A program made the translations under genes and the position numbers. A DNA stretch of 64,000 bases, taken from a virus. Positions 4,486 to 50,850 of this stretch are shown in pieces. The stretch lies in the IMG/VR virus record IMGVR_UViG_3300035042_000066; one strand, written 5' to 3'. The stretch's first letter is position 1; each line of letters opens with the position of its first letter. The notes beneath the pieces were generated by a model. The model worked only from the letters and a program-made list of their open reading frames with translations, had not been told where the DNA came from and searched no databases.

Positions 4486-5160
4486 TTAGACTAATTGTTT
4501 CTTTAATTCTTCGTATAATTTTTCTGATATTTCAATATCTTTACCATCTATAGTAATTATTTTCTTGTTAGATACAACTTCATATCCTGAAATTCTAGAA
4601 TCATTTAACTTTATTACTTGGTGTTCTGGAACAATTATCACTTCAAAAATATCACGTCTAACTACTACACAATTATAACCAGTTTTAAAGGTACAATTAG
4701 AACCTGTATCAAAGGTACAATCAGAACCTGTATCAAAAGTACAACAAGAACCTGTATCAAAAATACAATTAGAACCTGTATCAAAGGTACAATCAGAACC
4801 TGTATCAAAAGTACAACAAGAACCTGTATCAAAAATACAATTAGAACCTGTATCAAAGGTACAATCAGAACTAGTTTTAAAGGTACAATAAGAACCTGTA
4901 TCAAAAGTACAATAAGAACCTGTATCAAAAATACAATTAGAACCAGTTTTAAAAGTACAATTAGAATCTGTATCAAAGGTACAATCAGAACCAGTTTTAA
5001 AGGTACAATCAGAACCAGTTTTAAATGTTACAGTATTACACTCTGAAAAATCTAATACCAAACCTCTTTGTTCAGAACTAAAAGTTAAAGCAACTTCATC
5101 CCAAACATACAAATTAAAATCAATTGGTTTACCATTTTTTGTTACAGTGAAATTTTCCAT
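4486..5160 (-). CDS. octapeptide (FxTGSxCx) repeat protein, 15 repeats
   Basis: 24-nt coding tandem repeat; paralog of 5900..6514. Confidence 0.85.
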   Translation of the reverse strand: MENFTVTKNGKPIDFNLYVWDEVALTFSSEQRGLVLDFSECNTVTFKTGSDCTFKTGSDCTFDTDSNCTFKTGSNCIFDTGSYCTFDTGSYCTFKTSSDCTFDTGSNCIFDTGSCCTFDTGSDCTFDTGSNCIFDTGSCCTFDTGSDCTFDTGSNCTFKTGYNCVVVRRDIFEVIIVPEHQVIKLNDSRISGYEVVSNKKIITIDGKDIEISEKLYEELKKQLV

Positions 5161-5421: not shown

Positions 5422-5617
5422 GTGAACTACCCACAGGCTTTAGACTGTGGGCTTCTTAGGTAATATTTGCTTTTACTAGCCAAATAAATTTACTAAGCTA
5501 TCCCCGAAGTTCCTTCGGTTAATATTCTAAAACCCTCTTCTTTTATATTTTTACTCTTCCATCCCATATTATACCTTTTCTACCCACAGTCTAAAGCCTG
5601 TGGGATTTCTTTTTTTT
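5422..5617 (-). mobile_element. non-autonomous IS200/IS605 derivative (MITE/PATE) of the element at 47281-48990
   Basis: Reverse complement matches 47281-47352 joined to 48866-48990 via TAAAAATA microhomology; preceded by TTTAA, ends in TCAC. Confidence 0.95.
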
Positions 5618-5899: not shown

Positions 5900-6514
5900 T
5901 CATAAAGTCAATTGTTTCTTTAGTTGCTCGTATGATTCTTCTGATATTTCGATGTCTTTACCATCTATGGTAATTATTTTGTTATTAGAGATAATTTCAT
6001 ATCCTGATACCCCACAACAATTCAATCGAATTTTCTGATTTTCTGGAACAATTATTACATCAAACACATCACGTCTAATAACTACACAATGAGAACCAGC
6101 ATTAAATGTGCAATCAAAACCAGTATTAAATATGCAATCAGAACCAGTATTAAATGTGCAATCAGAACCAGTATTAAATGCGCAATCAGAACCAGTATTA
6201 AATGTGCAATCAAGACCAGTATTAAATATGCAATCAAAACCAGTATTAAATATGCAATCAGAACCAGTGTTAAATGTGCAACCAAAACCAGTTTTAAATA
6301 TACAACGAGAACCAGTTTTAAATGTGCAATCAGAACCAGTGTTAAATATTACATCATCATAATCTGAAAAATCTAATACTAATCCTCCTTTATAAGAGCT
6401 AAAAGTTAAAGTAGATTCATCCCAATTGTACAGATCATCAGAATTAAGTTCTTTGCCGTTTTTTGTCACACTGAATTTTTTCATTTTAAATCTCCTTTTT
6501 AATTCACTGATCAT
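5900..6514 (-). CDS. octapeptide (FNTGSDCx) repeat protein, 11 repeats (probable start 6484)
   Basis: 24-nt coding repeat; shares N-terminus and KIITIDGKDIEISE C-terminus with 4486..5160. Confidence 0.85.
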   Translation of the reverse strand: MISELKRRFKMKKFSVTKNGKELNSDDLYNWDESTLTFSSYKGGLVLDFSDYDDVIFNTGSDCTFKTGSRCIFKTGFGCTFNTGSDCIFNTGFDCIFNTGLDCTFNTGSDCAFNTGSDCTFNTGSDCIFNTGFDCTFNAGSHCVVIRRDVFDVIIVPENQKIRLNCCGVSGYEIISNNKIITIDGKDIEISEESYEQLKKQLTL

Positions 6515-8317: not shown

Positions 8318-8360
8318 GTGACGCTCCTCGGGGCAAGCCCACGAGGTTTTCTTGGTAGTT
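8318..8360 (-). mobile_element. IS200/IS605-type right-end scar
   Basis: GAAAACCTCGTGGGCTTGCCCCGAGGAGCGTCAC: GC-rich hairpin ending in TCAC. Confidence 0.55.
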
Positions 8361-8368
8361 CCCTATAA

Positions 8369-9681: not shown

Positions 9682-9725
9682 GTGAACTACACACTACCCT
9701 AAAGGGTTAGTGGTTTTATAGTGAA
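9682..9725 (-). mobile_element. IS200/IS605-type right-end scar
   Basis: AAACCACTAACCCTTTAGGGTAGTGTGTAGTTCAC, ending in the same GTAGTTCAC as the full IS. Confidence 0.6.
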
Positions 9726-10820: not shown

Positions 10821-11345
10821 TTAGTTAATTTTTATGAACCTATGTTTATGATTAGATTCACCTTGATATGACCACCCTAAATTATTAAATTTAGAAAGAA
10901 CAATTCTATTCTTAGTCATAGTTTTATAAACTTTTTGTAATTTTTTATTATCGCCTTCAAATATTACTGAATTAATATTTTCATTATTTTTTAAATAATC
11001 AAACAATATATAAATAGCTCTATTAAAAAAAGCTAAAGCATTATTACCATAAATTGGTTCTGATGTAGTATCTAAATCTTCTTTGTTTTTTACTTTATCT
11101 CCAGTAAAAAATTTAAAAATAATCTCATTGGATTTATCTGAACTGGTTATTATTACTTCAATTATTTTAGATGAGTAATTAAAATATGTAGAACCATAAG
11201 CATTAAATCTTTTATTATCAAAATCTGGAAAGTTTGTACCATATTCTGTTTGTTTAATATCAAAACTTTCTGTTAATCTTTTTTTAATTAAAAACTCCTC
11301 GATACTTATTTCTGATTCTTCATAAAACTCTTTAAAAGATTTCAA
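10821..11345 (-). CDS. putative internal head protein; paralog of the IS-split gene at 47114-49360
   Basis: N-terminus MKSFKEFYEE; alignable over its length with the reconstructed gene. Confidence 0.75.
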   Translation of the reverse strand: MKSFKEFYEESEISIEEFLIKKRLTESFDIKQTEYGTNFPDFDNKRFNAYGSTYFNYSSKIIEVIITSSDKSNEIIFKFFTGDKVKNKEDLDTTSEPIYGNNALAFFNRAIYILFDYLKNNENINSVIFEGDNKKLQKVYKTMTKNRIVLSKFNNLGWSYQGESNHKHRFIKIN

Positions 11346-33112: not shown

Positions 33113-33799
33113 TTAATTTAAATATTTTTGAATATATTTAAAATGATTTTCATAACAATGTAAAGAAGATGCTGTCCAAATCAAATTTCCTAATTCCAAT
33201 TCAGGATAATATTCTTTTAACTTATTTAATACCAAATCATGTACATATTTAGCCCACGCTACATCATTATTATAACCAAATACTACGTCATTACTTCGCA
33301 TCATATAATGAGAAATTAATTTATTATCTCTAATAAAAAATTGATTTGCGTATGTACAAACAAAATCTGACATACCTTCACTATTATATTCATAATGCAT
33401 TGAAGGTCTTTGATATATCATTGTTGCTCTTCTAGAATTTTTATTCTTTAGTAATTCATTTATGGCATTATTGAATTGATTATAATTTTGCTCTGAAAAT
33501 ATTAAATACCCATAATTTGAATTTATTTTACCTTCAGTACTTGATACCTCATTCCATATTTTTGGAGTAACTCCAGGTATATCTTTAACATATAAAGATT
33601 CAGATTTATACCATTCTAACTCTCTTTGAATATAATCATAATTAGGCTTTCTTATAATATAATCCTCAGTTACATTAAATGAATAACCTAGTAACTCAAT
33701 AAGTTTAGAGCCACTTTTATCTTCTATAAATTCTTTATTTTGAAATTTATTAATAAATTTTAATCTTATATCAGATACGTTATACATAATTTTCCCCAA
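33113..33799 (-). CDS. 42: dCMP hydroxymethylase-like enzyme (T4 gp42 family)
   Basis: YIQRELEWYKS, GMSDFVCT, MRSNDVVFGYNND match recalled T4 gp42, including the dCMP-specifying Asp. Confidence 0.85.
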   Translation of the reverse strand: MGKIMYNVSDIRLKFINKFQNKEFIEDKSGSKLIELLGYSFNVTEDYIIRKPNYDYIQRELEWYKSESLYVKDIPGVTPKIWNEVSSTEGKINSNYGYLIFSEQNYNQFNNAINELLKNKNSRRATMIYQRPSMHYEYNSEGMSDFVCTYANQFFIRDNKLISHYMMRSNDVVFGYNNDVAWAKYVHDLVLNKLKEYYPELELGNLIWTASSLHCYENHFKYIQKYLN

Positions 33800-36912: not shown

Positions 36913-39900
36913 TTAACCACATTTAGACCAGAAACAAACAGGACAAGTTTTACAACCTTCAATTAACTGTAATTCTGCTTCACATTCTGGACATAATATT
37001 CCAGTATTTTTATCAACAATATAATTAGATAAAAATACCTTTAACCTATAAATTAAAGAATTAATAGGAATATCTAAATCATCTAAAGTGTTAACAATTT
37101 TTTCAATTTTAACATTGTGTCTTAGTAAAAGTCCAATAGCTCTACTGATTTTAACTACATTAGATTGATTATTACTTTTCTTTTTATTATCTTCAATTAA
37201 TGTAGTTTCAATACCTTCTTTAATTGCTAGTTCTTCAAGTGCATTAATAGCGTTATGAGCATCAATTTGTTTTTCAGTATGATTAGTACTTACAAAAATA
37301 GCAAATGGGCGAGTTTTAGCTTTATCCTTAAACGCGACTTGAATATACCATTTTCGTCCTTCAGAAATAATTTTAAATCCTCTCATGGGATATTCAGAAG
37401 GTAATGAAACACTTTCTTTAATTACTTCTCCTTTTTCATGATCTTTCCAAATATCAAAAAATTCTTGTTTTTCTTCTTTAACTTCTGCACTTAGAACTGA
37501 ACCTCTAATTTCGTTTGGTATATATGTTGTAGTTCCTTTTAATCCTTCTTTCCAAGCTCTTTTATAAATATCTTTAAAATCTTCAAATGGATAATCTTCA
37601 GGTAAATTTATAGTTTTACTAATCGAAGAATCAATATATTTTTGAGCAATAATTTGAACATCTAAATGATCTTTATCTTTTAAGTCATTAATAGTTTCAA
37701 AATAATCAGGTAATTCTGCATCTTCACCATATAGATTTTCATATAACCAAACTGCATAATCAGTTACTGGTTCTTGAATTTCTGTTCCATCATCTTGTTT
37801 TACTTTTCTCCAATACTTTAGATTAAAAATTGGTTCAATACCAGAAGAACAATTGTTCATAATGATGCTAGAAGTTCCAGAAGGCGCCGTCGTCAATAAT
37901 CTTGAATTATAAATTCCATGTTTAACAATATCATTTCTTATATCTTCAGGTAATCTCTGACAAAAAGTTGATTCAATAAATTTAGGATCGAATCCAGTAA
38001 ATGTTTTATTTAATCCTTTAGTAATTTCTATAGATGTTTTATATGATACATCTCTTAAAGTTTTTAATAAATTTTCAGTAAATTCTTTACCTTCATTACT
38101 ACTATATTTTATTTTCATCATACATAAAGAATCAGCTAATCCTGTAAAACCTAATCCAACTGGTCTTTTGTTATGAGCAACTTCTTTTTGTTCTTCTAGT
38201 GGATAATAATTAATATCAATAATTTTATTAAGTAAAATTACCATTAGTTTAATACTTTGTTCATATTTTTCTTGTTGAAATTCAGGATTAATAAATGGAT
38301 TTTTTACTAATGTACTATAATTTACAGACCCTAAATTACAACTCGAATACTCAGGCAGAGGTTCCTCACCACAATTATGAACTAAAATACCTGAACAATT
38401 ATTATAGTTATCATCTAAACTTTTAGTAATAATATTAAAATTGTGATTATCTTCTACATTTAAATCATATACATCTTCAAATTCATTGTTATCTATTACA
38501 TCTTCTACAAATATTCTATCATTAAGTATTTGTTCAGATTTTTCTCTTTCTTTAATAATTTCTTGTAACCTTTTTCCTTTAACCGAATTTTCAAATTTTT
38601 CTAACTCATTTTTTAGTCTTTCTTCACTCCAATTATATCTTTGTGCATTTCCTAATATATTTCTTTTAGCATTATATAAACTAAAATATTCTTTATCTAT
38701 TTTAAAAATTGGATTATCTTTACCGTGTCTTTTTGTAATTCTCTTATGCTCTTCTACTGTTAAAAGTTGAAGATTTTTTATATTATCATTTGTACTATTA
38801 TTATCAATATGATCAATATTATATTCTTTACCATTATACTCCCCATTATAATATTCCCATATCATTCTATATTGTCTATCTTTTCCATTACTAATAGTGT
38901 TAATATGTCTATATGATTTATTATTTTTTGTGTTGGAATAAGTATAAAATTTTTCTAGTTCTAATCCTAATGAATCTTTAGCCTCAATATAACTTTTACC
39001 ATCTGTTAATGCTAATAGATGATCTGGGGTACATCTAAATTTTGATCCATCAGATAGAATAATAGTTAATAATTTTTTATAACCTGTTTTAAATGCTGTA
39101 GCCTTTTTAATTTCAGTTTTCCAACTATTACGGGTCTTATTTTTTCTACTAGAATAAACTAAAAATTCCTCTTTTGACTCTGCTAATTCCTTGATTGTAA
39201 CACCATTTCTCCCATCAGCTGTTGCAATAATTGTATCACCAGGAAAACACGGATTTGTTGTAAAAATATATTCATCATACCAAAGATTATTTTCACGATT
39301 AATTGTATCTAAAAATAATACGCCTGGCTCAGCATATTTATATGTTGCTTTCATTATTTTTTCATATAATTCTGCTGCATTTACAGTTTTATATACTTTA
39401 ATTGGATAACCTTTTGATTTCCACTCTTTAATATTTCCGTCCCATTCAGAGTTATATTTTTCAAATGATGTATCTGGAAAAATCAAATCCCATTCTTCAT
39501 CATTTTCTACGGCTTTCATAAATTCATCTGAAATTCCAACAGAAATATTAAAGTTAGTTAAAACTCCTTTTTCTTGTTTAACTTCAATGAATTTTTCGAT
39601 ATCAGGATGCCAAATATCAAGAACACCAATTTGAGCGCCTCTTCTATTATTACCACCTTTAATACTATCACACGTAGAATCAAAGATTTTCATAAACGAT
39701 AGCGGACCAGTAGAAACACCACCACTAGTAGAAATATCTGAATTTTCAGGTCTTAGAATAGAAAAAGAATAACCATTACCACCACCCGATTTCATCGTTA
39801 TTGCTGCTTCAGAAACCGCTTTCATAATACCTTGCATACTATCTTTCTTAATTGGGATTACATAACAATTAGAAAAGGTTTGTTCTTTTCTATCAGTACC

Positions 39901-40140
39901 TAGAGAATACATAGGCCTTCCGGCTAAAGAACAATAATGATTACTCAAATATTCATATGTTAATTCTTTTAATTCTTTAAATCCTTTTAAATTAAGAATA
40001 TTACAAAATACTTTAATTTCTTCAGAATTACATCCATTAAAAATAGCGTTGACAATTCTATTATAAAACTGTTCTGGAGTTTCACCATTCCATTGATATT
40101 TCATTTCCCAAATTTGTTTAGATATTTTTTGACTAATCAT
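36913..40140 (-). CDS. nrdJ: class II (B12-dependent) ribonucleotide reductase with intein
   Basis: SNCY, GGGNG, RRGA, TNPC/GEEPL, CNLGS, TAPSGTSS, SGIEP, C-terminal Zn finger. Confidence 0.9.
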   Translation of the reverse strand: MISQKISKQIWEMKYQWNGETPEQFYNRIVNAIFNGCNSEEIKVFCNILNLKGFKELKELTYEYLSNHYCSLAGRPMYSLGTDRKEQTFSNCYVIPIKKDSMQGIMKAVSEAAITMKSGGGNGYSFSILRPENSDISTSGGVSTGPLSFMKIFDSTCDSIKGGNNRRGAQIGVLDIWHPDIEKFIEVKQEKGVLTNFNISVGISDEFMKAVENDEEWDLIFPDTSFEKYNSEWDGNIKEWKSKGYPIKVYKTVNAAELYEKIMKATYKYAEPGVLFLDTINRENNLWYDEYIFTTNPCFPGDTIIATADGRNGVTIKELAESKEEFLVYSSRKNKTRNSWKTEIKKATAFKTGYKKLLTIILSDGSKFRCTPDHLLALTDGKSYIEAKDSLGLELEKFYTYSNTKNNKSYRHINTISNGKDRQYRMIWEYYNGEYNGKEYNIDHIDNNSTNDNIKNLQLLTVEEHKRITKRHGKDNPIFKIDKEYFSLYNAKRNILGNAQRYNWSEERLKNELEKFENSVKGKRLQEIIKEREKSEQILNDRIFVEDVIDNNEFEDVYDLNVEDNHNFNIITKSLDDNYNNCSGILVHNCGEEPLPEYSSCNLGSVNYSTLVKNPFINPEFQQEKYEQSIKLMVILLNKIIDINYYPLEEQKEVAHNKRPVGLGFTGLADSLCMMKIKYSSNEGKEFTENLLKTLRDVSYKTSIEITKGLNKTFTGFDPKFIESTFCQRLPEDIRNDIVKHGIYNSRLLTTAPSGTSSIIMNNCSSGIEPIFNLKYWRKVKQDDGTEIQEPVTDYAVWLYENLYGEDAELPDYFETINDLKDKDHLDVQIIAQKYIDSSISKTINLPEDYPFEDFKDIYKRAWKEGLKGTTTYIPNEIRGSVLSAEVKEEKQEFFDIWKDHEKGEVIKESVSLPSEYPMRGFKIISEGRKWYIQVAFKDKAKTRPFAIFVSTNHTEKQIDAHNAINALEELAIKEGIETTLIEDNKKKSNNQSNVVKISRAIGLLLRHNVKIEKIVNTLDDLDIPINSLIYRLKVFLSNYIVDKNTGILCPECEAELQLIEGCKTCPVCFWSKCG
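38374..39249 (-). mobile_element. intein (292 aa) with HNH endonuclease in nrdJ
   Basis: NP|CFPGDT...CTPDH...DHIDNNSTNDNIKNLQ...VYDLNVEDNHNF...LVHN|CGE. Confidence 0.92.
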
Positions 40141-46700: not shown

Positions 46701-47114
46701 ATGGAGGTTAAAATGGAAATAAAGAAATTTGAAGATTTATTTGAAGAAATTGAAAAAGACCTTGAAATAAATTCTGTTAATTTACAAGAGAAATTATTTA
46801 AAGTACCAAATTTACATACTAAATATTTAAGGATGTTCTATAATTATCAGAAAATATATCTAAAGAAGAAAAAACAACTCAACGAATTATACACTGAGAT
46901 ATATGATAAATATAAGAATGGAGATGAAATATTAGATAAAAAGGAAATACAGTTCTATGTTTTATCTGATAAAGAATATTCTGATTTAAAGTATAAGGTT
47001 AATCAATTAGAAAATATGATAGATATATTAGAGAAAACAGTAAAACGAGTTAATAATCTATCTTTTGACTTGAAGCATATTATAGAGTGGGTTAAATTTC
47101 AAGAAGGTGCGTAA
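46701..47114 (+). CDS. uvsY: recombination mediator UvsY
   Basis: DLEIN..NL..VPNLHTKYL...IIEWVKFQEG; near uvsW. Confidence 0.8.
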   Translation: MEVKMEIKKFEDLFEEIEKDLEINSVNLQEKLFKVPNLHTKYLRMFYNYQKIYLKKKKQLNELYTEIYDKYKNGDEILDKKEIQFYVLSDKEYSDLKYKVNQLENMIDILEKTVKRVNNLSFDLKHIIEWVKFQEGA

Positions 47115-47330
47115 TGTTATCATTTAAAGAATTAACTGAGCTAAATGAAATTAAAGATATAACTAGTAAGAATATTTGGATTAGTCTTCAAGAAGGTTTC
47201 AATATATCTGAAACAAAATTTGGTATTAATTTTCCTAAATTTGATAATTATAGAATCAAAAATGGAAGGACTTATTTTAAAAAAGAAAGAAATCCCACAG
47301 GCTTTAGACTGTGGGTAGAAAAGGTATAAT

Positions 47331-47732
47331 ATGGGATGGAAGAGTAAAAATAGACATAAGTATTTGTTGCAATGTCATTTGATATTTGTGTGTAAATATA
47401 GGAAGAAGTTTTTCTTAAATTCTACAATATTTGAAAAAGTAAAACAATTATCTTTTGAAATATGTAATAAACATAAAGGTAATATTGAAGAAATGGAAAC
47501 TGATAAAGACCATATTCATTATATGATTGAATATGAACCTACAATTTCTATTAGTAAAATTGTAAATCTAATGAAATCATATATAACTTTTCATATTTGG
47601 AATACAGAATCTAATTATTTGAAAAATTATCTATGGAAGGAAAAAACATTTTTTACAGATGGGTATTTTGTGTGTAGTATAGGGAATGTATCAAAAGAAC
47701 AATTACAAAAATATATAGAAAATCAAGGATAA
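47331..47732 (+). CDS. tnpA: HUH Y1 transposase
   Basis: HLIFVCKYRK, DHIH, GYFVCSIG, YIENQ. Confidence 0.95.
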   Translation: MGWKSKNRHKYLLQCHLIFVCKYRKKFFLNSTIFEKVKQLSFEICNKHKGNIEEMETDKDHIHYMIEYEPTISISKIVNLMKSYITFHIWNTESNYLKNYLWKEKTFFTDGYFVCSIGNVSKEQLQKYIENQG

Positions 47733-47754
47733 TTAATTTGACAAAATTAATATT

Positions 47755-48918
47755 ATGTGGTATAATACAATAGAAAGTGAGGTGATAGTAATGAAAATAA
47801 ACAAGGCTTATAAATTTAGACTTTATCCTAATAAAAAGCAGGAAGAGTTAATTAACAAAACTTTTGGAAGTGTTAGATTTATTTATAATAAAATGTTATC
47901 GGATAAGATAGATTATTATAAGTTGCATAAACAAAAATTAAATAACACTCCTGCTCAATATAAGAAAGAGTTTGGATGGTTGAAAGAAGTTGATAGTTTA
48001 GCACTATCAAACGCACAATTAAACTTACAGACTGCTTATAATAATTTTTTCAGAGATAAAAAAGCGGGATTTCCTAAATTCAAAAGTAAGAAAAAAGATA
48101 AAAATAGTTATACAACAAATAATCAAAAAGGAAGCATATCTTTATCTGAAAATAATAAAAAAATAAAACTTCCAAAGTTAGGATTAGTAAAAATTAAATG
48201 TCATAGAACAATTAAAGATAATGAAATTATTAAGTCTTGTACAATTTCACTATCACCTTCTGGAAAGTATTATATAAGTATATTGGTTGAATATGAAAAA
48301 GAAATAATCAAAGTAAAACCTAAAATAGAAAATGCAGTTGGATTAGATTTTTCTATGAAGGATATGTTAGTAGATAATAATGGTACGACAGCCAAATATC
48401 AATATTTCTATTATAAATATCAAGAAAAATTAGTCAAAGAACAAAAGAAATTATCAAGAAAGAAAAAAGGAAGTAAAAATAGAAATAAACAAAGACTGAA
48501 AGTTGCAAAAATTCATGAAAAAATAGTAAATTGCAGAAAAGATTTTCAACATAAATTATCAAGAGAATATGTAAATAATTTTGATGTAGTGTGTGTTGAA
48601 GATATTAATATGAAAAATATGTCAAGAATGTTAAATTTTTCTAAGAAAACTATGGACAATTCTTTTGGTTCATTCAGAGATATGCTCAAATATAAGTTAG
48701 AATTAGAAGGAAAATATTTTATAAAAATAGATAAGTGGTTTCCTAGTTCTAAGACTTGTAATGAGTGTGGGGTTATAAATTCTAAACTAAAATTAGGAGA
48801 ATTTGAGTGGATTTGTGATTCTTGTGGAAGTGTTATAAATAGAGACGTAAACGCAGCTAAAAATATAAAAGAAGAGGGTTTTAGAATATTAACCGAAGGA
48901 ACTTCGGGGATAGCTTAG
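47755..48918 (+). CDS. tnpB: RNA-guided nuclease TnpB
   Basis: KAYKFRLYP; RuvC GLD / VED / RDVNAA; Zn finger CNEC..CDSC. Confidence 0.95.
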   Translation: MWYNTIESEVIVMKINKAYKFRLYPNKKQEELINKTFGSVRFIYNKMLSDKIDYYKLHKQKLNNTPAQYKKEFGWLKEVDSLALSNAQLNLQTAYNNFFRDKKAGFPKFKSKKKDKNSYTTNNQKGSISLSENNKKIKLPKLGLVKIKCHRTIKDNEIIKSCTISLSPSGKYYISILVEYEKEIIKVKPKIENAVGLDFSMKDMLVDNNGTTAKYQYFYYKYQEKLVKEQKKLSRKKKGSKNRNKQRLKVAKIHEKIVNCRKDFQHKLSREYVNNFDVVCVEDINMKNMSRMLNFSKKTMDNSFGSFRDMLKYKLELEGKYFIKIDKWFPSSKTCNECGVINSKLKLGEFEWICDSCGSVINRDVNAAKNIKEEGFRILTEGTSGIA

Positions 48919-49368
48919 TAAATTTATTTGGCTAGTAAAAAGCAAATATTACCTAAGAAGCCCACAGGCTTTAGACTGTGGGTAGTTCACTTATAAATCA
49001 AGAGTAATTGAAGTAAATATAAATAAGATACCAGGTACTAATATAGCTTATTTTAAATTTGCGTCTGGTCCAAAAGTAGATAATAAAAGAGATTTAGATC
49101 CTATTACTGGTAACTTAAAACTACAAGATTCATCTGCTCTTAGTATATATAATAGAGTAATATATGTTTTGTTTGAATATCTTGAAAATAATAAAGAAAT
49201 AAATGAAGTTCAATTTCAAGCAGCTGATAAAGATTTACAAAAGATATATTCAGTAATGGTTAAAAATTCTAAATTTTTGAAAACTTTTGAAAGATATGGA
49301 TGGAAATATATGGGGTTTGAAAACGATAGTTATAAATTCGTATATGATTCAGAGGAATAAATGTTTAT

Positions 49369-50850
49369 ATGATTATTATTAATAAATTAAATGAATCATT
49401 TGTAAATCTACAGGGAGATTATGACGAACTATTAACATTAAAAGAACATTTAACATTTAAGGTTCCTAATGCTAAATTTATGCCCAAAGTAAAGGCGGGA
49501 ATATGGTCAGGAGATATATCATTACTTGAAAGAAATGGTAATTTGCCTATTGGTCTTTATCCAAAAGTAAAAGAACTTTGTAAACAACTAAATATTCCCT
49601 TCGAAAGTAATTTTACTAAAACTAGTATCAATATAACAGAAGATAATATTAATAGTTTTGTAAAAGAGATTAAGTGTAATTTAACTTGTAGAGATTATCA
49701 GATAAAAGCAATTATTGCGTCTTTTAAACAGCAGAAAAATATTGTCATATCTCCTACTGCATCGGGTAAAAGCATGATCCTTTTCCTGATAGCGATGTTA
49801 AATTTAAAGATAAATCCTAGTGCTAAAATATTATTAATAGTACCTTCTATAAATTTAGTAGATCAAATGAAAGGTGATTTTTTAGAGTACGGAGAAAATA
49901 CTAAATTACCTGAAATTCATACAATATATTCTGGACAAGAAAGACATAATGAATATCCCATAACTATTAGTACTTGGCAATCTTTACAAATGATTCAAGA
50001 TAAAGAATTTTTTGAAGATTTCGATGTAGTATTAGTAGATGAGGTTCATGGCGCTTCAAATTCTACTGGCCAAAAATCTATGTCAATGGTAGTTCAAAAA
50101 CTTATTCAAGCTTGTTCTAACGCTAAAATGAAAGTTGGTGTTTCAGGTACTATTCAAGATGAAAAAATAAATAGACTACAACTTGAAGGTTTATTTGGCA
50201 AAATCAATCAATTCACTAATACTAAAGAGTTAATGGATAAAGGCACATTATCTAAATTAGAAATTAATTTTTTAGTTTTAAATTACGAAGATAAGATAAG
50301 AAAGCAATGCTATAATTTACCTTATCCAGATGAAATGAAATTAATCACAGAAATAGAACAAAGAAGAAAATTTATTATTAACTTAGCTAAAAAGATTAAA
50401 GGTAAAAATGTATTAATATTATTCAGAAATATTGAATTTGGAAAGATGATTTATAATGATTTATTAGAACTAGAATTAGATAGAAATATTCATTACGTAT
50501 CAGGTGAAACTAAAGGTAAAGATAGAGAAGAAACTAGACAAACTTCTATAGAAGATACTGATGGAATAATCGTGGCTAGTATTGGTGTTTTTGCGACAGG
50601 TGTGAATATCCCTAATTTAGATTATTTAATATTTGCTCAATCTCAAAAATCTAAAATCAAGGTACTTCAATCTATTGGTCGTGTAATAAGAAAAAGTAAA
50701 TCTAAAAACAAAGCAACTGTTATTGATCTAGTAGATAATTTATCTTGGAAAAGAAAACAAAATTTTTCTTTAAAACATGGTATGGAAAGAATGGAATTAT
50801 ATGACAAAGAACAATTTGAATATGATATTAAAGAGATAAATATAAAGTAA
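49369..50850 (+). CDS. uvsW: SF2 helicase UvsW
   Basis: RDYQ, SPTASGKS, DEVH, QSIGRVIR. Confidence 0.93.
   Translation: MIIINKLNESFVNLQGDYDELLTLKEHLTFKVPNAKFMPKVKAGIWSGDISLLERNGNLPIGLYPKVKELCKQLNIPFESNFTKTSINITEDNINSFVKEIKCNLTCRDYQIKAIIASFKQQKNIVISPTASGKSMILFLIAMLNLKINPSAKILLIVPSINLVDQMKGDFLEYGENTKLPEIHTIYSGQERHNEYPITISTWQSLQMIQDKEFFEDFDVVLVDEVHGASNSTGQKSMSMVVQKLIQACSNAKMKVGVSGTIQDEKINRLQLEGLFGKINQFTNTKELMDKGTLSKLEINFLVLNYEDKIRKQCYNLPYPDEMKLITEIEQRRKFIINLAKKIKGKNVLILFRNIEFGKMIYNDLLELELDRNIHYVSGETKGKDREETRQTSIEDTDGIIVASIGVFATGVNIPNLDYLIFAQSQKSKIKVLQSIGRVIRKSKSKNKATVIDLVDNLSWKRKQNFSLKHGMERMELYDKEQFEYDIKEINIK

Follow-up and report, generated by a model that had tools for sequence, protein, structure and literature searches.

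The 64,000-nucleotide stretch of phage DNA analyzed here (the window) carries an intact 1,710-bp insertion sequence of the IS200/IS605 family, with the tandem tnpA-tnpB layout of IS608 and ISDra2. It is probably an autonomous element that TnpA inserted recently on the 3' side of a TTTAA motif, thereby knocking out a probably non-essential phage gene (designated gene X), and that persists selfishly through its TnpB. The IMG/VR record that encloses the window is linear, 69.3 kb in length, approximately 39% complete, and 27% G+C. Genes for portal, scaffold, major head, tail tube, and prohead protease proteins were detected together with uvsX, uvsY, and uvsW, and the source is a T4-like phage. The major capsid protein is at most 36% identical to those of isolates, and the phage is thus without a close isolate. 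The metagenome runs containing DNA of this phage are of oil-field and subsurface origin. The features of the region are collected in Table 1.

Table 1. Coordinates in the window of the insertion sequence, its gene-less derivative, and the surrounding phage genes.
Feature	Position	Strand	Remarks
Whole insertion sequence	47281..48990	+	Lacks terminal inverted repeats; target not duplicated
TTTAA motif (target of TnpA; predicted TAM of TnpB)	47276..47280	+	Empty-site joint, 10 left ends
Left end	47281..47315	+	DNA guide AAAT 47290-47293; 22-nt subterminal hairpin 47294-47315; IS608-like layout (PMC3201880)
tnpA, Y1 HUH transposase, 133 aa	47331..47732	+	PF01797, E 2.5e-32; H61, H63, Y128
Sigma70-type consensus promoter for tnpB	47738..47766	+	12/12 match, extended -10; pattern match
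tnpB, RNA-guided RuvC nuclease, 375 aa	47791..48918	+	PF12323, PF01385, PF07282; D186, E270, D352, zinc finger
Predicted omega-RNA scaffold and right end	48860..48990	+	Covariation in 9 related ends; 5' limit approximate
Right-end parts			Hairpin loop GGAAC 48898-48902, paired with GTTC close to the 3' terminus; second stem; DNA guide GAAG 48957-48960; hairpin 48961-48982; terminal TTCAC
Predicted RNA guide, taken from right flank	48991..49006	+	Equals empty allele exactly; length inferred from family
PATE: left end plus omega-RNA/right end, own guide	5422-5617	-	196 bp, preceded by TTTAA, ends TTCAC
uvsY-like recombination mediator	46701..47114	+	Upstream neighbor of gene X
Gene X 5' part, codons 1-55 of 178	47114..47280	+	DUF6934-like, predicted GNAT-like fold
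Gene X 3' part, codons 56-178	48991..49360	+	No stops or frameshifts
uvsW-like helicase	49369..50850	+	Downstream neighbor of gene X
Gene X paralog, intact, 174 aa	10821..11345	-	TTTAA at 11179-11183; guide positions 4-6 mismatched

The ends of the element were determined exactly. Two further studies supplied contigs (runs X4 and X6) in which position 47280 is followed directly by position 48991, with exactly 1,710 bases absent, and no letter at this joint can be assigned to both sides. An earlier note on this DNA had placed the junctions at TTTAA before the left end and at TCAC before the right flank, and this is where they were found: TTTAA occupies 47276-47280, and the terminal TCAC finishes at 48990, and TTATAAATC comes directly after it. 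The same note had claimed that removal of 47281-48990 would restore a frame resembling that of an intact paralog. The deletion does yield one open 178-codon frame containing GRTYFNYKSRVIEV, and the restored product aligns with the paralog at 47% over 154 aa, the paralog reading YFNYS at the junction. Many adjacent cut pairs also preserve the frame, and thus in-frame rescue by itself is weak evidence for the ends. These are fixed by three independent results, namely, the X4 and X6 joints, a 196-bp gene-less derivative (PATE), and the intact ortholog in a more distant phage (L085). The PATE combines the first 72 bases of the element with its last 133, the two pieces meeting at an 8-nt microhomology (joint 47344>48858), and has the same two ends as the full element; it is a second omega-RNA cassette and sits downstream of a promoter. 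In L085 the ortholog (P0195) is 178 aa in length, the gene order is uvsY-X-uvsW, and the identity is 82% in both DNA and protein.

The earlier note had proposed a comparison with relatives lacking the insertion, and empty sites were found in X4, X6, and L085. The empty contig of X4 covers 899 bases and has 21 differences (2.3%) from the window strain, with none within 43 bases to the left or 72 bases to the right of the junction; the TAM and the guide target of X4 are therefore perfect. In L085 the site reads TTCAA in place of TTTAA, a synonymous change, and 19 of the 20 target bases are kept. The TTCAA may reflect escape or chance. Three natural alleles are found at this one site: filled, susceptible empty, and empty with an altered TAM (TTCAA). 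The X4 and X6 alleles look as though they never held the element, rather than having lost it by excision, because they come from a divergent strain with 21 differences in 899 bases.

The evidence from runs X1, X3, X4, and X6 consists of assembled contigs, from which rare variants are dropped. No contig of X1, possibly the source sample, has the empty joint, a result that for this reason does not imply an absence of excision. As to homing, no trace of it was found: none of the contigs has the filled allele on a divergent background. Searches of the IMG/VR and JGI collections, from which the records of the window itself may be missing, for the exact empty-site pattern and for relatives of gene X returned none. 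One X3 contig (record 12), in which the internal junction of the mini-element is joined to the flank of gene X, was not taken to show a mini-element at gene X. At a depth of 2.5x, it more probably arose as a graph chimera over the shared 83-nt repeat, and it was counted for the right junction only.

The catalytic motifs of both proteins are intact, as the earlier note had claimed. TnpA has H61-I-H63 and Y128, and the D186/E270/D352 residues and four zinc cysteines of TnpB are in register with ISDra2 TnpB (8H1J/8BF8, E 1.4e-68). TnpB most likely starts at ATG 47791 rather than at ATG 47755, because the latter falls within the perfect promoter. Two substitutions in TnpA, S34F and V50G, are absent from the aligned relatives and could weaken the transposase; the copy at another site in X6 differs by one base across the stretch that holds them. 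The tnpA gene begins 50 nt inside the left end, and the frame of the interrupted gene X terminates one base ahead of the tnpA start.

The TTTAA motif named in the earlier note is now backed by 10 independent left ends (nine of nine aligned elements plus record 25 of X6), where the boundary of each relative is taken from the motif itself and only that of the present element is backed by empty sites. The spacing from TTTAA to the left hairpin is 11-15 nt at nine of nine aligned sites, for which the chance expectation is ~3% per site; one orphan hairpin (L086) is without TTTAA. The 22-nt imperfect hairpin is identical at 47294 and 48961. We take the tetramers at the feet of the two hairpins, AAAT on the left and GAAG on the right, to pair with TTAA and TCAC in the register of AAAG with TTAC in IS608. 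These tetramers fit TTAA and TCAC, and they occupy the positions of the DNA guides of IS608 (PMC3201880).

In the nine aligned right ends, a hairpin loop with the sequence GGRAY pairs with RTTC close to the 3' end. Two stems carry compensatory changes (A-U to G-C in stem 2), and the 4-bp pseudoknot is retained in eight of the nine through compensatory or wobble changes. The right-end RNA agrees with the pseudoknotted TnpB scaffold and is a predicted omega-RNA. The support for this fold comes from the alignment: folding of the single sequence was not significant (z -0.73), and an Rfam search of the window returned three tRNAs and matched no omega-RNA or group I intron model. The 69 kb record has 812 TTTAA sites, and when other TnpB targets were sought at these sites, the best seed match was 5 nt. 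The paralog of gene X keeps TTTAA and diverges after three guide nucleotides, as had been claimed; positions 1-3 match, positions 4-6 mismatch, and 13 of 20 match overall. The seed of TnpB is reviewed as ~12 bp in length and sensitive to mismatches (PMC13639567), and the paralog should escape cutting because its seed is mismatched at positions 4-6.

On every feature that can be tested in a sequence, the element is a member of the IS608/ISDra2 type of the IS200/IS605 family. TnpA is a Y1 HUH enzyme, and TnpB has the HTH, OrfB_IS605, and zinc-finger domains with the RuvC D/E/D residues. The hairpins are subterminal, terminal inverted repeats and target duplication are lacking, the insertion is 3' of a fixed motif, and the predicted pseudoknotted omega-RNA at the right end, as aligned, overlaps the 3' end of tnpB. 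An IStron was rejected since the left end, with tnpA 50 nt in, lacks room for a group I intron and Rfam returned none. An IS607 element was rejected since TnpA is Y1 and not a serine recombinase, and TldR was rejected since D186, E270, and D352 are intact and both transposon ends are present.

The element shares with ISDra2 and IS608 the gene order and orientation, the Y1 HUH transposase, imperfect subterminal hairpins, 4-nt guides at the hairpin feet, insertion 3' of a short motif with no duplication, and the pseudoknotted right-end RNA, and its TnpB is homologous to that of ISDra2. It differs in the TTTAA target and the TTCAC end, whereas TTGAT or TTAC/TCAA are found in those elements, and also in having a perfect promoter for tnpB alone, located between the two genes, and in its residence in a phage. 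IS605 itself has divergent tnpA and tnpB genes, unlike the element described here. Compared by motif alone, the TTTAA target or TAM is common to IS605, ISAam1, and SisTnpB7 (PMC13565253, PMC13639567).

Elements with TnpA and TnpB in T4-like phages, and PATEs with an omega-RNA, are already known. The part of the report on Campylobacter phages CP220 and CPt10 that is drawn on here (PMC2853527) describes the IS200/IS605 elements ISCaje1-3 and ISCaje4. The last of these has TnpA and TnpB, belongs to the IS608 subgroup, and resides in a T4-like lytic phage, and the insertion site of ISCaje1 is not the same in the two sister phages. The target of ISCaje2/3 is ATTTT rather than TTTAA, and no analysis of empty alleles or of an omega-RNA is described in that part of the account. 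IS200/IS605 elements are also found in Clostridium phage c-st, whose TnpB is 50% identical to the one described here. The Geobacillus ISGst elements and their PATEs (Meers et al. 2023, 10.1101/2023.03.14.532601) have in common with the present system the terminal TTCAC and the pairing of an autonomous element with gene-less omega-RNA derivatives. TnpB of ISGst cuts the donor joint; the TAM of ISGst2 is TTTAT, and those elements were studied on bacterial chromosomes rather than between phages.

Near-identical copies have moved elsewhere. X4 and X6 contain pieces of this insertion sequence with 0-1 base differences and other flanks, and in L087, a phage of an unrelated type, a 97.7% identical copy directly follows a Pol III-alpha gene. 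The flanks of the X4 and X6 copies gave no match to the 69 kb record, which is only 39% complete. Judged from these sequences, the element is young at gene X and moved recently, because the reading frame is still open in each half of gene X and near-identical copies are found at other sites; the claim of a recent insertion is upheld.

The product of gene X may be a packaged protein. No Pfam or PHROG family was found for gene X itself. Its homologs number 65 at E ≤0.001 and have loose ties to DUF6934 and to viral clusters, but DUF6934 matches only five of 58 homologs. Compared with known structures, the model of the paralog (pLDDT 88.8) is moderately similar to GNAT folds (best Z 6.6, rmsd 3.2, 105 aligned), a predicted likeness that gives no function for gene X; the model also resembles uncharacterized proteins of T4-like phages and, weakly, Alt-type ADP-ribosyltransferases (E 7e-4 to 6e-3). 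The N-terminus of gene X, MLSFKELTE, resembles the capsid-targeting sequence of T4 (PMC9958956, PMC9026906). Gene X and its paralog share a start resembling M-x-(S/T)-(F/Y)-K-E with many homologs and with several other ORFs, and the phage encodes a gp21-like protease. Packaging of the product is plausible.

The knockout of gene X was likely tolerated and the gene is probably dispensable, because gene X has a paralog and evolves faster than its neighbors and because most related copies of the element are intergenic. Gene X has 32 nonsynonymous and 42 synonymous codon changes, compared with 54 and 118 in uvsW and 9 and 32 in uvsY. Among the related copies, only that in L093 may also split a frame. 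Alt of T4 is itself non-essential (PMC9026906). The filled copy has the derived changes E35K, E88K, and G133A, and Gly is the residue at position 133 in the paralog, in the consensus of the family, and in the two relatives; these small numbers are a weak hint of drift.

In the proposed mechanism, TnpA would have inserted a single-stranded circle 3' of TTTAA by peel-and-paste, the mechanism of this family, and disrupted gene X. A transcript from the tnpB promoter would run through the right end into the flank and so provide TnpB and an omega-RNA with a guide against the empty site, and the same read-through may keep uvsW expressed. An empty allele, whether it arose through excision or arrived with a relative during co-infection, would be a target of TnpB and, once cut, UvsX/UvsY/UvsW recombination would repair it with the filled copy as template. 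This scheme follows the literature on scarless excision, on the TAM as the TnpA target, and on TnpB-driven retention. Meers et al. (10.1101/2023.03.14.532601) found that excision restored lacZ and that colonies of the restored type were eliminated when an active TnpB targeted them. Expression of tnpB and cleavage by TnpB are presumed here from the sequence, and some intact-looking natural TnpBs, such as HpyTnpB of IS608, are inactive. The phage may modify its cytosines (a thymidylate-synthase-like gene is located at 33113-33799), and this could hinder cutting, although the TTTAA TAM has no C or G. Homing between co-infecting phages is plausible, because the same TnpB chemistry would apply and the phage has uvsX, uvsY, and uvsW. 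The process would be like that of the homing endonucleases of T4, both intron-borne and free-standing (Seg/Mob), if TnpB cuts the co-infecting empty allele and phage recombination copies the element. It would differ in that the element is RNA-guided, its guide is reset at each site, and there is no splicing, so that the host gene is lost.

A broader reading is that the element belongs to a phage-resident IS605 lineage that TnpA transposition carries from one large phage of anaerobic habitats to another, unrelated one, and that then spreads at each new site by TnpB-driven homing between co-infecting relatives, even where a packaged protein is thereby lost. We regard this as possible but doubtful. 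Phage-like DNA surrounds all ten close relatives that have flanking DNA, including the present element, and the phages are often unrelated. Where the context of the nearest TnpBs (71-97% identical) could be used, it was in every case phage-like DNA, with genes for Pol III-alpha, YonV, ERF, dUTPase, CCA-adding enzyme, Dam, YopX, and PcfJ. A tree of 53 sequences has an 18-row TnpB clade (support 100/99) with no GTDB member; context is known for 10 of the 18 rows, and the relatives were picked for long contigs, so that sampling bias is possible. TnpB homologs occur in 415 phage records, and exact look-ups of the TnpA and TnpB sequences of the window returned no contigs. The wider family of ends is found in clostridial genomes and gut phages, with TnpAs 66-72% identical and a different TnpB (~40%). 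It was present in four of 802 clostridial genomes searched and in at least one chromosomal setting, between mnmG and rsmG homologs as read from translations. A strong claim of a phage-only lineage was rejected on this account, and phage specialization is a lead rather than a result.

Those clostridial chromosomes, with their 66-72% identical TnpAs, also bear on the idea that the element is a passenger from a host chromosome, inactive or rarely active in the phage, that neither homes nor excises and drifts in a dispensable gene X. Many of the close TnpB relatives are on context-free contigs of 1.3-2 kb, typical of multicopy host elements, the S34F and V50G substitutions fit a weakened TnpA, and empty alleles persist in samples that hold this insertion sequence elsewhere, though those copies bear other guides. 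We nevertheless consider such a dead end unlikely: the catalytic residues, both ends, the promoter, and the RNA fold are all intact, near-identical copies are found at several sites, a derivative was inserted in the same genome, and in none of the bacterial genomes among the GTDB hits does a TnpB exceed 60% identity when compared over its full length.

The earlier note had further suggested that the insertion may toggle the protein. In such a switch, TnpA would excise at a useful rate and a fraction of the progeny would regain the 178-aa, possibly packaged, protein. Precise excision would give the exact ancestral frame from two intact halves, the truncated frame, which stops one base ahead of tnpA, could link translation of TnpA to that of gene X, and excision by TnpA restored lacZ without TnpB (10.1101/2023.03.14.532601). 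Restorability is shared, however, by any scarless element inside a gene and is not a sign of selection. An active TnpB and a toggle are in conflict, because the targeting nuclease eliminates the restored allele (10.1101/2023.03.14.532601), and TnpA alone is unlikely to re-enter the same TTTAA among the 812 in the record. The empty alleles are on a divergent strain, with 21 differences, and E35K, E88K, and G133A in the filled copy weakly hint at drift. The toggle thus fared poorly, and we consider it very improbable. That the phage retains TnpB and the guides of the element and the PATE as a weapon against rival phages or host DNA is scarcely credible, for although the predicted tnpB promoter is strong, the omega-RNA cassette of the PATE also has a promoter ahead of it, and the guide matches relatives without the element, both guides are simply insertion-site flanks, and tnpA and both ends are kept. 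Strains that differ by 2.3% vary in whether they have the element, the record contains no other target beyond a 5-nt seed match, and homing would by itself kill rivals with an empty site.

The preferred reading is therefore that of a selfish, autonomous element, and as it stands this is an ordinary, well-preserved IS200/IS605 insertion with the typical behavior of a known transposon family. It adds one more natural TnpB, of 375 aa, with a predicted TTTAA TAM. The phage is uncultured, which limits its use as test material. The value of the system lies in its exact ends, a TAM from 10 sites, a covarying omega-RNA, three alleles, and the phage recombination genes alongside. In a limited literature search, TnpB-biased inheritance was found demonstrated for chromosomal donor sites only, and this set of alleles would permit a direct test of such inheritance between co-infecting phages.

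In a set of relatives of the 1,710-bp parent element (L201, L204, L208, L213, L218, L234, L245, L254, L255, and L261), the right end is almost unchanged, TnpA is 66-72% identical, and TnpB is only 40% identical. The comparison indicates that tnpB has been exchanged within one end family. Three to six such right ends were found on each of several gut phage contigs, and many right ends on gut phage contigs were without tnpB within the DNA retrieved. On contig L089 (7114-7230), a different and longer right-end hairpin lies beside a relative of TnpB that is 84% identical; neither a tnpA nor a left end of the parent element's family was recognizable there. These features point to an end swap in the L089 element.

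The spacing between the TTTAA target motif and the left hairpin was found to be 11, 13, 14, or 15 nt among close relatives (left ends of L086, L087, L088, L090, L092, L093, and L198). It is 13 nt in the window copy versus 15 nt in the 97.7% identical copy of L087. Inside the left end of the window copy, the reading frame of the interrupted gene X continues for 16 codons and reaches a stop one base ahead of the tnpA ATG. Translational coupling of the two frames is possible, as is a truncated gene X product of 71 aa that would retain the targeting-like N-terminus.

Further features of the window.
Feature	Window position	Strand	Remarks
Repeat protein	4486-5160	-	tandem 8-residue repeats C-T-F-x-T-G-S-x
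196-bp derivative	5422-5617	-	between the repeat proteins
Repeat protein	5900-6514	-	paralog of 4486-5160, same repeats
Right-end-like remnant	8319-8365	-	G+C-rich hairpin, terminal GAGCGTCAC
Solo right-end-like remnant, another IS200/IS605 element	9682-9715	-	hairpin, then GTAGTTCAC
Thymidylate-synthase-family gene	33113-33799	-	flanked by dNMP kinase and dCMP deaminase
Ribonucleotide reductase large subunit	36913-40140	-	internal HNH-like stretch, about residues 400-490
Gene X frame within left end	47281-47333		

In the gene-less 196-bp derivative, the right-end hairpin has an interior that is reverse-complemented relative to the parent element, so that the two ends of the derivative together form one long inverted repeat without mismatches (z -5.9). 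Because sequencing run X1, which may be the source sample, has four differences within the same stretch, an assembly error is an unlikely cause of the inversion. The inversion may block recognition by TnpA or folding of the omega-RNA. A promoter-like site, TTGACT-17-TATATT, is immediately ahead of the derivative.

The remnant with the G+C-rich hairpin closely follows the stop codon of a thyX-like gene, and the solo remnant is located directly upstream of the start codon (ATG) of an ORF that encodes 75 aa and begins with a capsid-targeting-like sequence. Judged from these sequences, the phage has hosted several IS200/IS605-like elements.

The HNH-like stretch in the ribonucleotide reductase is probably an intein with an endonuclease. 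The thymidylate-synthase-family gene and its neighbors may be a sign of modified bases, which, if present, bear on the ability of TnpB to cut the DNA of this phage.
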